DNA of 63,971 nucleotides, the filler included, from an uncultured bacterium (GTDB lineage: Bacteria > Hinthialibacterota > Hinthialibacteria > Hinthialibacterales > Hinthialibacteraceae): assembly GCA_964449065.1 (NCBI GenBank). It is 3 parts of 3 records of this genome, joined end to end, with 100 filler letters (N's around TTAATTAATTAA, not from the genome) between each part and the next. Parts side by side here need not be neighbours in the genome. Positions count along the whole stretch, not along the records: positions 46,719 to 63,971 come from CAYVAZ010000075.1; 2 more parts are not named here. One strand, written 5' to 3'. A program made the position numbers. This document shows, piece by piece, positions 51,001 through 57,000 of this stretch (position 1 is its first letter; the number at the start of each line of letters is the position of its first letter).

Positions 51001-54000
51001 CCGTTCCTCTCATTCAACGCGAACTTCTGCCGGGTTTTTACGGCTGTCGGACAGTCGGTCAACTGCGGTTCCGGGTCGGGGAACGATTCCAAAATGTTAT
51101 CGATGTTTGGGATGTCGCATTTAAACTCTTTATACAACTTGCCTTCGGGTCCTTCGATGAAGGCGGCGTCCTTGATTTTGTTTTCGCCGTCTAAAACAAT
51201 CTCGCAGCCGTCGGCGTATTTGTAGCGGATCAAGTTCCAGGAACCGACCGCGTCTGGATGCTGCCGGGGTGCTTCGACTTCAATTTCGATTGGGCTGGTG
51301 TCGTCTTTGCGCAAGAGGTATTGCGCGGGATCAATGTAGTGCTGCCCCATATCGCCAAGGCCGCCGCCGTCGTAATCCCAATAGCCGCGGAAGGTGCCGT
51401 GGACACGGTGCGGGTGATAGGGCTTTTCCGGGGCGGGACCAAGCCAGTAGTTGTAATCCAACTCTTGAGGAATATCTTGCGGTACCAGATCGGTTCTGCC
51501 GCTCCAGTTGAATTTCCAATTGAATCCGGTAACCCCGCTGATGGTAATTTTTAGAGGCCAGCCCAACAAACCGCTTTCAACCAGTTTTTTGATCGGTTTC
51601 ACGGGAACTTTCATGCCGTAAAAATCGTTTTCAAAGCGAAACCATGTGTTGATGCGGAAGATACGGCCGTATTGATTGACGGCTTTGACCACGCGTTCGC
51701 CTTCGCCGATGGTGCGGGTCATGGGTTTTTCACACCAAATATCCTTGCCCGCTTCCGCCGCCATGATGGACATAATGGCATGCCAGTGCGGCGGGGTGGC
51801 GATGTGAACGATATCGATATCGGGGCGGTCATAGACTTCCCGAAAATCTTTATAGCCTTTTATATTGCCTTCACCGTAGCGTTTTTCGGCTTCTTGAATG
51901 CCTTCTTGCAGATGCTTCTCATCCACATCGCAGACAGCGACCAAGCGGGCGTCTTGATAGCGGATGTGGCCCTTGCCCATGCCGCCAACGCCGATGATGG
52001 CTTTGGTCAGTTCATCGCTGGGGGCGGTGTGGCCCGCGCCCAATACCCGGCGGGGAACAATGCAAAGACCGCCGGCGGCCAGTGTGCCGTACAAAAAAGA
52101 ACGGCGGGAAACGGAACGTATACGCTTCATATTTCATTCTCCTCAACATCGAAACATGCTTGGTATTACTATAGGTGATTTGACCGATTTATGCTATGAA
52201 TGTGAAGGATAGAAATATCAATTGTTTCGATAGTGTGAGTGAGCAATGACCCAACAACCAACGTATCACTTTGATCAAACATACAAATGGAATTACGACA
52301 ACGGCCCCGATTTTGATGGGGACTTTCCTACGCAAAGCGGAACCATTTCCTTCCAACTGCTTGGGATGACCATCAACTCCCCGTTTGGGATTTCTGCGGG
52401 TATATTGCTGAACTCCAACTGGATTGAAGTGTATTCCAAATTGGGGTTTGATATCCTGACCTACAAAACGGTACGCAGTTATCATCGTCCATGTTATCCT
52501 CTGCCCAACTGGGTATTTGTGGATTGCCCGGAGCAATTGAACAAAGGTGATGATATTCCTCTGATTGCGCATCCGCAGCCCAAGCAGGAGTTGGACAAAC
52601 TGACCTCGTCGGTGTGTTTTGGAATGCCATCCGCCGCGCCGGATGTTTGGCGGGATGATGTTGCCCGTGCCAAGAGTGTAATGCAAAAAGGGCAATTGCT
52701 GATTGTAAGCGTTGTAGGCACGCCGGATGAAACCGGTTCGCTGGATCATCTCGCTGAGGACTATGCGCAATGCGCGGAGTGGGCCGTGCAAGCCGGCGCC
52801 GATGCGGTGGAGGCGAATTTATCCTGCCCGAATGTGTGTACCGCCGAGGGAATGGTTTACCAGGACGAAGAAGCAACCCAGGCGATTGGGGAATCAATTC
52901 AAGAACGGATCGGCAGCACGCCGTTGCTATTAAAAGTTGGATCCTTAAAGGATTTGCAGGCGTATAAGAACTTTTTGTTTCAAACCGAGTTGTTTGCGGA
53001 CGGCATTGTACTGCTGAATTGTGTTCCACGCCGGATACACAAACCGGATGGCTCTCCGGCGTTTGGTGAAGGAAAAGAGCGCGCCGGTGTGTTGGGCTGG
53101 GGAACGTTTGATATTTGTATGAAACACGCCAAATTGATTCTGCAAGCCAATGCGGAAATCGGGAGCCGGCAAACCATTATTCCGGTGGGGGGAGTGACGA
53201 CACCGGATGCCGCGTATCAATATTTACAGGCAGGCGCGAACGCGGTTTTAATGGGAGGGGCGCCTGTATTTGATCCCTATTTTGCGATGAAACTGAAACA
53301 GGCTGATTGGAATGACGACAAAAAAACGAATACTGGCGGTTGAACCGTATTACGGCGGCTCACATAAAGCATGGATCGATGGCTGGATCAAACGGTCGCG
53401 GCATGAGATCACTCTCCTCACTCTTCCGGCGCGCAAGTGGAAGTGGCGTATGCGTGGCGCCGCGGTGGAGTTGGCGGAACGGTTTAACCAAGAATTCTCC
53501 ACGCAAACATGGGATGGATTGATCGCCAGCGATATGATGAATCTGGCGGAGTTTATCGCGCTAACCCGCCCCGCGTTTGAACGAGTTCCCAGCATTCTGT
53601 ATCTGCATGAGAACCAATATAGTTATCCCTTGCATCCGGAAGAGCGGATTGATTTTCATTTTGTGCTGACCAATTTCGTTTCAATGGAAGCGGCCACCCA
53701 AGTCGTGTTCAATTCCGAATTCAACCGCGATGACTTTTTTCGGGGGATCCAGCATGTGTTTAAGAAGATGCCGGATTTTACGCCGGATGCAGCAAAGTTA
53801 GAGCGCATGAAACAAGAGAGTTTGGTGATCCCGCCTTGCGTTGAATTGCCTGAATACAAACCGAAAATGAAGCCTTCCGGACACCCGCCGGTCATTCTAT
53901 GGAACCACCGCTGGGACCGGGATAAACAGCCGGATTTTTTTATGCATGCGCTTACAGACTTGACCAAGCAGGGAGTGGATTTTCAAACCATTATCTGCGG

Positions 54001-57000
54001 GGAATGTTTTGAAAATGGAGACGAATGGTTTAAAGAGGCGCCGGAACGATTGGGAGAGCGGCTACTGCATTTGGGATATGCGGAATCGCGGCAGCAGTAT
54101 GAGCAGTTTTTGCATCAGAGCGACATTGTGATCTCGACCGCCATGCAGGAATTCTTCGGCATCAGCATTGTGGAAGCGGTCGCGGCCGGCGCGTTTCCGG
54201 TCTTGCCCAACCGGTTGAACTACCCATATCTGATACCGGACGCGTTTCATAAATCCGTGTTGTATGATGATGCCAACCTTACCGGTCATCTAAAGAGAAC
54301 TGTCGGGAAATGGAAAAACGGAGACCTTCCCAATCTATCAGAGTATATGAAGCAATATGAGTGGGATTATCATGTTGATACGTACGATGGACTTTTTGGG
54401 TTATAATGTAAACCAAACCAATTGTGAGTGGGAAATATGAAAACGATTTCTTTGGATGAAGCGCAAAAACATCTGTATAAATATTTACAGGAATCCGGGC
54501 AGGGAGATACGTTTTTGATTGCTGAAGATGGGATCCCTCGTGCAGAACTTAAAATTATTCAACAGGGAACGGTTACGGATCAGCCTGATACATTTGATCA
54601 ATATCATTCTTCAGAATCACCGCGACCTCCGCGTAAGCCAGGGGGATCTTGGAAAGGGAACGTATGGATGGCTGATGATTTTGATACGTTACCCGAAGAA
54701 ATAGTTGAAGCTTTCGGTATGCAATAAATATGCGGTATTTATTGGACACAAACATTAAAAGAAATCTCCAATCCAAACAATACTGTATTCGCTAGCGTGG
54801 CTTCGGTTTGGGAAATGGAAATTAAATCTGCTATTGGTAAATTGAACTTACCAAGTAATGTTGAAGAAGAAATAAAATTACATGATATTGAAATTCTTCC
54901 TATTCATTTGCATCACGTCTTAGCATTACGAAATTTACCGCTTCATCATAAAGATCCATTTGATCGAATTCTAATTGGTCAAGCATTCAGCGAAAACCAT
55001 ACCCTTATTACACGTGATAAAATCATTCAAAGATACGAAATTCAAACACTTCTTGCTTGAAGGAATGTACCTTCAACAACGTTTCTCTCTTGATAAACTT
55101 TCTCATTAGAGCGTTTCAGAGTTGGATAGACAGAATCTGTCGTTGTTCCCCCCCTTATTAAGGGGGGTAAGGGGGGATCAAAGACGATATCTTTCTATCT
55201 ACTCAAACCTGAATTGCTCTAAAACAAGCATAAACGAAAAAGGATACAGAGCATGGAAACCATTACAATACAGTCGCAGCAGGAAACACCGAACGGATGG
55301 CAGTTGGAAGTGGTTGTGGGGGAAGGCAACGATACCACACATCATAACGTTTCTGTGGATAATGAGTATTTGAAAATGCTGGATGTTGACAAGTTTCCGG
55401 TGGAAAAGGTAATAGAGACTTCGTTTGAATTTTTGCTGGCGCGTGAGCCGAAAACATCCATCCTACGCTCATTCAGCCTCGATGTGATTGAGGACTATTT
55501 TTCCGAATACAAGCCTGTAATCAAGAAGATGGTTGAGCAGAAATAGTTCGGATAATGCAGAAAAAATATTTAAAGGGGATAAGCAATTTATCCCCCTTTT
55601 TAAATAACCATTGTGGATTCCGGTTTAATACAACGCCCAATCAACAAAGCCTGTTGGCGCGTCTACTCTCACAGGTATAGAAAACAAACTGGTTGCTGTT
55701 CCATTTGCTTCGATGGCGTTTGCCGCTACGGTTAAATATAACTCATCAGAGAGTCCTGCCGTATCGAAATTGCTGACTTGAAAGGCAAACTCGCCCGGTG
55801 TGTTATTCATGTCTTCGGCGGAATCGTCCACAAAGGTTTGGATGTATACCATCCCCTGCGGTCTTTCCAAATTGTTCGGATCGGCAAGGTATAAATCCAC
55901 TTCAACGGAATTCACATCCGGATCGTCTGTTGTGATGGGCAATGTGCCGGCGATCATGGATGATGTGGTTTCATCCGGATTTAAAACGGGACGGAAATCT
56001 TCGGGGTCTTCTGAAATAAGATACCGCCCGAATGCCGAACCGCTCAGTCCATCGCCTTGCAGAGAATTATTAAACATCGTATTCCCACGAAGTGCGAACA
56101 GGCCGAATTGGTCAAAATTGTTACTGGCCTGATACCCGAAGAAGAGAGTTTGTGTATTGGCGATGATATTGCTCTCCAATTCATCCTGATTCCCATCAAA
56201 ATCCGGGCCGACTCGTAAATCTTCAATATCGGCAAACATGCGGAAAAAACTGTCATTGGGGATAGCGGTTTCGCCGTCTATCCCAACGCCAATATAGTTG
56301 CCGGCAATTACCAATCCGGAATGATCCCCCCAAAACGAGAGAACGTCATTGTTCATCCCGCCGATGATGTTGCGTTCCAACTCATCGGATACACCATCGC
56401 TGTTGGTGCCGACAATGGTGTTGGGCATCCCGGCGCCTTCTACCGCATCGCCTTCGGTGATGTTGACGATGATAAAATCGGTGGCGGGAGTCAGCCCGTC
56501 CGGCATGATGCCGATGAAGTTGCCGGAGATTCGGCAATTCGGGGCTTCTTCGATGATGGTATTGACGTTATGCCCGGCAATTACGTTGAATTCATGAACG
56601 TCGTCAACACCGTCGCCATTGGTTCCGATAATGTGACCGCCTCCGGTACCGCAGCATACACCAACACCGATTTCCATATTGCCAATGGTTTCCTGGTCGG
56701 GATGAATACCAACCCAGCATCCCGCGACTTGCCCGCCGGTTGCGCTGCCGCGCCAATTGACACCATAATTCGCGGCGCCGGCTGCAAATTGATCGCCAAC
56801 AAATGAAATCCCCATCACCTTTACGTTATCGCCTAAAATGGCCAACATATCAAAATCGGAGTTGGTATTGGATGTGAGCGCGGAGATGACAATTTGTATA
56901 TTTGCGTTATTCGGTTCCAGTATGCTGTTGGTGTTGGGAGAAGAACCGGGTTGAGAGTATCCATCCAAAATCGTCCCGTTGCCGCGGATGGGAGGGAAGC

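Follow-up and report, generated by a model that had tools for sequence, protein, structure and literature searches.

The stretch of DNA analysed here (the window; 63,971 nucleotides, filler included, from an uncultured bacterium) carries on its plus strand, at 53312..54406, a single-copy gene for a QTMAN-family (PF12038/DUF3524) GT-B glycosyltransferase, as indicated by Pfam, tblastn and an AlphaFold2 model. The open reading frame begins at position 6594 of contig C75 and encodes 364 aa with no internal stop, and tblastn returned no second copy in the genome. Residues 6-176 (53327..53839, plus strand) match QTMAN_N over positions 1-167 of the 168-position profile at 188.7 bits (Pfam cut-off, 25 bits), and residues 183-317 (53858..54262, plus strand) form a GT4-type C-terminal nucleotide-sugar-binding domain (Glycos_transf_1, 48.6 bits). 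Based on the GT-B architecture, the N-terminal domain is presumed to bind the acceptor. The AlphaFold2 model (pLDDT 93.4) adopts a GT-B fold, with the best structure match at Z 30.0 and 13% identity. By its sequence, with a full-length QTMAN_N domain, a GT4-type C-terminal domain with a GT-B fold and motifs shared with animals, the protein genuinely belongs to the QTMAN family over its whole length. The genome-wide survey's note, which had described a full-length homolog with a GT4 catalytic domain, was correct on this point. Neither of two features typical of GT4 glycosyltransferases from LPS/EPS clusters was found, as the best NCBIfam score to a named GT4 equivalog was 31.9 bits against a cut-off of 550 and no glycan genes adjoin the gene on C75. 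A scan for promoters and terminators gave no signal above that of shuffled sequences.

Immediately upstream, a divergent dihydroorotate-dehydrogenase-like gene (52246..53343, plus strand; DHO_dh, 57 bits; below all NCBIfam cut-offs) overlaps the start of the QTMAN gene by 32 bases. Among 165 carrier loci, the others hold no relative of this gene, and it was rejected as a conserved partner and is considered a local neighbour only. The carrier loci (1.31 Mb in all, with many short and some duplicated) contain no tgt, queA, queE or queD and folE only once, extending the previous observation that the gene has no linkage to Q genes, and no deazaguanine cluster flanks the QTMAN gene in any of them. 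A conserved operon partner was likewise rejected, with 114 neighbour proteins (one per cluster) belonging to unrelated families; RsmB/F lies downstream in four spirochaete loci alone, and thiI upstream in a single actinobacterial class. The gene is solitary, with changing housekeeping neighbours. Another GT4 was nearby in 6 of 98 QTMAN loci (the QTMAN frame was called in 89 of these and lost to longer shadow frames in 9), compared to 6/28 for the genome's own GT4s, which is a weak point in favour of Q glycosylation.

Three motifs distinguish the protein from the 28 other GT4s of the genome, all of which lack them, and are common to the animal QTMANs. The aromatic/basic motif W43-K-W-R-M-R48 (53438..53455, plus strand), identified in the alignment, is a candidate base or RNA contact; W43 and W45 are invariant in all aligned rows (6 bacterial, 5 animal), the animal form is W-H-W-[RK]-A-R, and W-x-W-R occurs in 131/150 representatives. 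The motif H99-E-N-Q-x-x-Y-P106 (53606..53629, plus strand) is invariant in the aligned bacteria and animals and present in 126/150 representatives, while R200-W-D-R-D-K205 (53909..53926, plus strand) represents a motif (RWxxDK) found in 143/150. K205 is invariant, aligns with the lysine of the animal DK and is, on the basis of the alignment, the probable equivalent of human K296, with the mapping made through coelacanth K305, which lies 162 residues away from the C-terminus, and a human QTMAN length of 458 aa. Human K296 is required for manQ formation, based on the K296A result (bioRxiv 10.64898/2026.06.28.735034).

Identity to five animal QTMANs is 31-35% across both domains (37% in both BLAST segments for the coelacanth protein), and 50 columns are invariant over the 6 bacterial and 5 animal rows. 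Separated by domain, the identities are 30-35% for the N-domain and 36-42% for the C-domain, and because the acceptor-side domain is nearly as conserved to animals as the donor domain, Q glycosylation is the best guess for the function. A tree built from 31 bacterial and 5 animal rows gives the animals a stem of 0.42, which is not long, and the distances between animals and bacteria (1.9-3.8) overlap those amongst bacteria (median, 2.3; maximum, 3.3), so nothing in it suggests a neofunctionalising burst.

The gene is a typical member of an already catalogued family and is not special to this genome; relatives are named at NCBI as either 'DUF3524' or 'tRNA-queuosine alpha-mannosyltransferase domain-containing protein'. 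Its presence is patchy, occurring in 10/35 genomes of the phylum (own genome included, in agreement with the earlier count of 9/34), 93/251 and 49/201 genomes of two carrier classes, and 3/121 Gammaproteobacteria. None of the 14 model-organism controls (E. coli, B. subtilis, and 12 others) has the gene, so the lack of reports of bacterial manQ says little, and this absence may explain why bacterial manQ has gone unreported. In a 2020 review, manQ and galQ are ascribed solely to eukaryotes. Viral contigs, plasmids and phage records contained no true QTMAN_N members, with the phage records giving 8 weak matches to the C-terminal half. Amongst 2371 candidates, a search for fusions returned one longer protein, the extension of which is not protein-like. 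Long QTMAN frames in GC-rich genomes were rejected as fusions (shadow frames of the upstream gene), as were two ThiI-QTMAN joins (P0281 and P0283) that look like frameshift artefacts.

The queuosine pathway previously ascribed to this genome was recovered in part, with Tgt, QueG (377 bits), FolE, and a weak QueE-like match present and QueC, QueD, and QueF not confirmed. A motif scan of the genome gave no match for QueD or QueF and one for SGGLDS, in a 508-aa frame. As had been noted, tRNA-Asp(GUC) is present (two genes, with the loop CU-GUC-AC) and no QueA was found in the bin, which is 87% complete; QueA was found in 9/9 carrier kin of this genome. Work on the human modification indicates that m5C38 is not required for mannosylation of queuosine. 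Gmd, a GDP-mannose-using enzyme, is encoded (417 bits, over cut-off), while ManC had no match in the bin and was over cut-off in two of the three other carriers tested. GluQRS had no match over cut-off in this genome.

Across distinct carrier genomes, Tgt was found in 163/165, the exceptions being G006 (86% complete) and G490 (also missing QueA). Tgt is, in fact, near-universal in the carrier lineages, occurring in 250/251 and 197/201 genomes of the two classes regardless of the QTMAN gene, and its co-occurrence therefore fails to refute Q glycosylation rather than supports it; the Q pathway of this genome, cited in the survey as support, cannot be used in that way. In the phylum of genome G035, Tgt was present in 14/14 carriers versus 175/301 genomes overall, a lineage-confounded comparison, and a phylum-level association (Fisher p 4.8e-4) was rejected as confounded by the near-universal TGT of the carrier class. 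Tests within the Spirochaetia returned p values of 0.57 and 0.30, and the Gammaproteobacteria sample held too few carriers for such a test. QueA occurred in 52/54 chosen carriers and, in a comparison within one class, in 48/49 carriers and 141/152 other genomes (Fisher p 0.30), which, like the Tgt counts of the two classes, was uninformative. GluQRS was over cut-off in 4/27 carriers, including both gammaproteobacterial carriers tested (one with a truncated QTMAN), and mutual exclusion of QTMAN and GluQRS was rejected on this basis.

A tRNA-queuosine alpha-mannosyltransferase mannosylates Q34 at its allylic hydroxyl. The reading favored here, with a probability of roughly 0.6, is that the bacterial protein also glycosylates Q34 of tRNA, probably with mannose on tRNA-Asp. 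As a stand-alone, retaining GT-B enzyme, it would use a nucleotide sugar, most likely GDP-mannose, to place a hexose (most likely mannose) on a hydroxyl of the cyclopentenediol of the queuosine predicted to occupy position 34 of the target tRNA, most likely tRNA-Asp(GUC). Glycosylation would follow the formation of Q34 by Tgt, QueA, and QueG and result in a bacterial manQ-type modification. The survey's proposal that some bacteria glycosylate Q34 draws its support from family membership and the conserved N-domain, and gains none from the Q pathway or from linkage to Q genes.

GT4-type enzymes at 31-35% identity often differ in acceptor, and the protein could instead be an ordinary GT4-type enzyme acting on a small molecule (osmolyte or thiol) or on a lipid, protein, or cell-surface glycan, with animals having switched acceptor after acquiring the gene. 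The lack of Q-gene linkage across the carrier loci, the patchy presence, the co-occurrence with GluQRS, and the GT genes beside it in a few loci of Desulfobacterales and Rhodothermales are all in line with such an acceptor, as is the identity of the closest solved folds (sucrose-phosphate synthase, BshA, and glycogen synthase), but these fold matches are just 8-19% identical, i.e., generic GT-B. With N-domain motifs common to animals and in no other GT4 of the genome, a short animal stem, and a gene rarely in glycan clusters, this explanation is considered unlikely.

A distant family of phage glycosyltransferases raises a second alternative. These GT-B proteins, similar in length to the 364-aa protein, occur in folE/queD/queE clusters (BCSR5, ACP17, Phosso, BUCT-ZZ01, and PA5oct), including deazaguanine clusters of cultured phages, with folE in 11/13 loci and queE in 9/13, though no deazaguanine gene lies within 9 kb of a member in phage PhiXhv-12. 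The two families match in profile-profile comparison (probability 99.3, E 2e-20, 210 columns) and are mutual best by profile score amongst the GT4s tested, but the phage proteins are at ~15% identity, lack a QTMAN_N Pfam match, and are missing the W.WR and HENQ motifs in 13/13. The phage-family profile ranks the 364-aa protein first amongst the GT4s of the genome (75 bits, compared with 26). This ranking and the folE and queE company count towards the Q34 reading, though the link runs mainly via the donor domain, with the profile of the N-terminal half reaching at most 8 bits. In a first, quick tree in which long branches meet, the branch leading to the phage family is very long (5.8) and its placement unsure; that tree was not used for rooting. 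No support emerged for reading a gene beside the phage glycosyltransferase as DpdA (no Pfam, PHROG, or PADLOC match; TGT profile at most 4 bits), and no word starting with 'glycosyl' occurs in Cui et al. 2023. An acceptor of the 7-deazapurine/pterin type outside tRNA-bound Q, such as free queuine or queuosine (to be stored, salvaged, or exported), a preQ intermediate, or DNA deazaguanine, is suggested by the phage clusters without Q-tRNA chemistry, by the model's best viral fold match (best by a small margin), which is a member of the phage family, and by pterin glucosyltransferases amongst the GT-B fold matches (not the best ones). It is improbable, given that the bacterial proteins resemble animal QTMAN much more than they do the phage family and that no deazaguanine cluster flanks the carrier loci.

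Returning to tRNA-bound Q34 as the acceptor, a broader scenario can be put forward tentatively, in which Q glycosylation arose in bacteria and is found in thousands of species, most of them unstudied and some (Coriobacteriia with small genomes) probably living in the gut. Animal QTMAN would descend from the bacterial family, and the two, along with the enzymes of the phage folE/queD/queE clusters, would make up a single clan of glycosyltransferases for 7-deazaguanines, with tRNA as the target in cells and DNA in phages. Should the bacterial family make glycosylated Q, many bacterial phyla would possess a sugar-bearing tRNA base, missed because the control organisms lack the gene. This would suggest that animal QTMAN came from bacteria, provide a small, insert-free protein for work on structure and mechanism, and prompt the question whether gut bacteria release a glycosylated form of queuine.

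Amongst known systems, the GT4 enzymes of solved structure (PimA, BshA, MshA, and sucrose-phosphate synthase) share the GT-B fold (Z up to 30, rmsd ~3 Å over 330 residues) and have weak C-domain profile matches to the 364-aa protein, but none has the QTMAN N-domain motifs, and phmmer (E 0.01) found no relative in the PDB. The animal enzyme QTMAN (GTDC1), reportedly identified by Zhao et al. in Cell in 2023, is a tRNA-queuosine alpha-mannosyltransferase that matches the bacterial protein over its whole length, with QTMAN_N followed by a GT4-type domain and EP..G.SH, W.W, HENQ..YP, FNS, RW..DK.P, STA, G....EA, and L.YP in common. The animal rows have a variable insert of ~100 residues between the two domains that the bacterial protein lacks, and the activity, donor, and acceptor of the latter are predictions from this likeness. 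The decoration proposed for the bacterial protein also has a counterpart in GluQRS (YadB), the glutamyl-Q tRNA-Asp synthetase, which, according to a review, modifies Q34 of tRNA-Asp on the very same cyclopentenediol ring; GluQRS is an unrelated enzyme and adds glutamate, whereas the QTMAN-family protein would add a sugar.

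The QTMAN homologue at 53312-54406 (+ strand) is intact, as the genome-wide survey's note had read it, and its 364-residue product combines a full-length QTMAN_N domain (Pfam, 188.7 bits, profile positions 1-167 of 168) with a GT4 part matched by Glycos_transf_1 at residues 183-317. The window joins several contigs and contains runs of N (313-322, 23280-23379, 39305-39404, 46619-46718, and 62669-62768), with contig C75 comprising only the sequence from 46719 onward and the gene starting at C75:6594. The AlphaFold2 model (pLDDT 93.4) has a GT-B fold; the best-matching solved structures share only 8-19% identity, phmmer found no relative in the PDB, and no NCBIfam GT4 equivalog came near its own cut-off. 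The gene is single-copy in the genome, and its nearest named relative (55%), labelled DUF3524, belongs to Candidatus Hinthialibacter antarcticus.

The window protein is a real, intact, and typical member of a large, already catalogued family, and the copy itself is not special. Among the 8000 candidates scored, 3697 proved to be homologues, and 1690 clusters (50% identity) reach an E-value of 1e-30. The survey's count of carriers in the bacterium's own phylum holds: 10 of 35 genomes with this one included, 9 of 34 without it; elsewhere the gene occurs in 14/301 genomes of the phylum of an Acidimicrobiia genome, 93/251 of a class inferred to be Coriobacteriia, 49/201 Spirochaetia (over the cut-off), 3/121 Gammaproteobacteria, and none of 14 model-organism controls. 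Two genomes (G003, loci L010 and L018, and G039) have two full-length QTMAN_N copies each, and because the G003 copies sit in separate parts of the tree, they point to transfer. NCBI and the ESM Atlas already label such bacterial proteins after QTMAN. The literature searched, partly as excerpts, yielded no report of QTMAN or of glycosylated Q in bacteria, nor any mention of DUF3524 or PF12038; Zhao et al. 2023 (Cell), cited in the excerpt of PMC11755703, may mention bacterial homologues, and a portion of PMC7694415 places manQ and galQ in eukaryotes rather than in bacteria.

Glycosylation of Q34, as the survey proposed, is the most likely function, at a probability of roughly 60%; its caution that homology leaves the acceptor unfixed stands, as nothing computed here settles it. 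Among the Q-pathway genes it listed, Tgt, QueG, and FolE were recovered and QueE became a weak QueE-like match; QueC, QueD, and QueF gained no confirmation, a motif scan turning up no QueD or QueF motif; a search of the genome for QueA again gave no match, and tRNA-Asp(GUC) is encoded by two genes (loop CU-GUC-AC). Bearing on the sugar donor, the genome encodes Gmd, and a search of the bin for ManC gave no match. Tgt is present in 163 of 165 distinct carrier genomes (the exceptions are G006, 86% complete, and G490) and QueA in 52 of 54 chosen carriers. In the phylum of the Acidimicrobiia genome, Tgt occurs in 14/14 carriers versus 175/301 genomes overall (p 4.8e-4), a value we discount because TGT is near-universal in carrier classes (250/251 genomes of one class, 197/201 Spirochaetia). 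QueA occurs in 189/201 Spirochaetia, and the within-class p values, both for Spirochaetia, are 0.57 and 0.30. This co-occurrence could have refuted the Q idea and did not, and it adds little support. GluQRS, the glutamyl-Q tRNA-Asp synthetase, gave nothing over the cut-off in the genome; it exceeds it in 10/20 non-carrier gammaproteobacteria and 4/27 carriers, and the latter rule out mutual exclusion with QTMAN.

An acceptor unrelated to Q is the stronger alternative, though unlikely. The absence of linkage noted by the survey extends to 165 carrier loci (1.31 Mb in all, with numerous short loci and some duplicates), in which tgt, queA, queE, and queD are absent and folE occurs once. In a survey of 98 loci (QTMAN ORF found in 89), 114 neighbouring proteins fell into unrelated families, and another GT4 lay nearby in 6/98 loci, versus 6/28 for the genome's own GT4s within 7 kb. 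The gene resembles a solitary housekeeping gene, which fits a tRNA enzyme without proving one, and the only characterised family members are the animal Q-tRNA mannosyltransferases.

Upstream, a divergent DHODH-like flavoprotein gene (52246-53343, +; DHO_dh at 57 bits, with no NCBIfam model reaching its cut-off) overlaps the start by 32 bases; it has no paralogue in the genome (tblastn) and no relative in any other locus of the 165-locus set. Downstream lie a Phd/YefM antitoxin gene and a broken-looking PIN-domain gene (54428-55060, +), where a frame opening at 54730 resembles the N-terminus of a PIN domain and runs into a stop after 21 codons, the PIN match itself (profile 37-118) being in a different frame. 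In four spirochaete loci (L019:8079-8888, L029, L039, L097) a short RsmB/F-type m5C methyltransferase directly follows the QTMAN homologue, a lineage-specific arrangement. In the inferred Coriobacteriia (L168-L177) the gene appears to come after thiI; ThiI-QTMAN joins in the database (P0281, P0283) look like frameshift artefacts.

A non-tRNA deazapurine or pterin as acceptor is the least probable reading; distant phage glycosyltransferases encoded near deazaguanine genes bear both on it and on Q glycosylation. The window protein gave eight weak matches in phage records, one of which, in Burkholderia phage BCSR5, adjoins queE and folE. Across BCSR5 and 12 viral contigs (four near-identical) with relatives, folE occurs in 11/13 loci, queE in 9/13, and queD-like genes in 4/13. 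Family genes lie at L137:8440-9552, L205:4998-6026, L206:4998-6089, L207:4998-6164, and L208:4998-6059 and in L188-L198. In cultured phages ACP17 (a DpdL phage in the extract of Cui et al. 2023, PMC10516641), Phosso, BUCT-ZZ01, and PA5oct, the gene lies within or adjoins deazaguanine clusters; no DpdA could be identified beside it. Of all ORFs in the genome, the window protein scores highest against the phage profile (52 vs 26 bits; 75 vs 26 with a wider set), hhalign gives a probability of 99.3% over 210 columns, and the model's best viral fold match is a family member by a small margin (E 2.4e-12 vs 5.3e-12). The phage N-half profile reaches at most 8 bits, QTMAN_N has no match in the family, and its branch is very long. 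The link to QTMAN is suggestive only, and the family is a candidate for glycosylated deazaguanine in DNA. No deazaguanine gene lies within 9 kb of the member in Xanthomonas phage PhiXhv-12, where L136:6273-10359 encodes GlmS, a PIG-L deacetylase, a glycosyltransferase of the same broad family, and a Gfo/Idh/MocA oxidoreductase, with a GNAT upstream, possibly an amino-sugar DNA modification cluster.

For Q-tRNA glycosylation, the N-domain (W43, W45, R46, H99-E-N-Q) would bind a flipped-out Q34 and the anticodon loop, and the C-domain would hold the nucleotide sugar with R200, K205, and its E280-E288 motif, following the established GT4 pattern. Through retaining transfer, the allylic hydroxyl would receive the sugar, as reported for human QTMAN in excerpts of bioRxiv 10.64898/2026.06.28.735034 and PMC12518689. 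The same preprint excerpt reports that K296A abolishes manQ, and K205 is probably the equivalent residue, judged from alignment to coelacanth K305 and the length of the human protein. Bacterial tRNA-Asp is a plausible substrate because, by that preprint, human mannosylation is independent of m5C38. A benefit could lie in decoding rate or in anticodon-nuclease protection, the latter demonstrated there for human tRNA-Asp and only a guess for bacteria.

In a tree of 31 bacterial and five animal rows (LG+G4, built without phage and GT4 rows), the animals form one group (support 100/99, stem 0.42), and the distances from animals to bacteria, 1.9-3.8, overlap those among bacteria (median 2.3, maximum 3.3); since the tree is unrooted, it is no more than consistent with a bacterial origin of animal QTMAN. 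Of 150 family representatives, 131 have W-x-W-[RK], 126 have HENQxxYP, and 143 have RWxxDK; none of the genome's 28 other GT4s has any of the three. The window protein is 31-35% identical to the five animal-clade sequences of the comparison set (N-domain 30-35%, C-domain 36-42%; BLAST identity to coelacanth QTMAN is 37% in both halves), and 50 columns are invariant over six bacterial and five animal rows.
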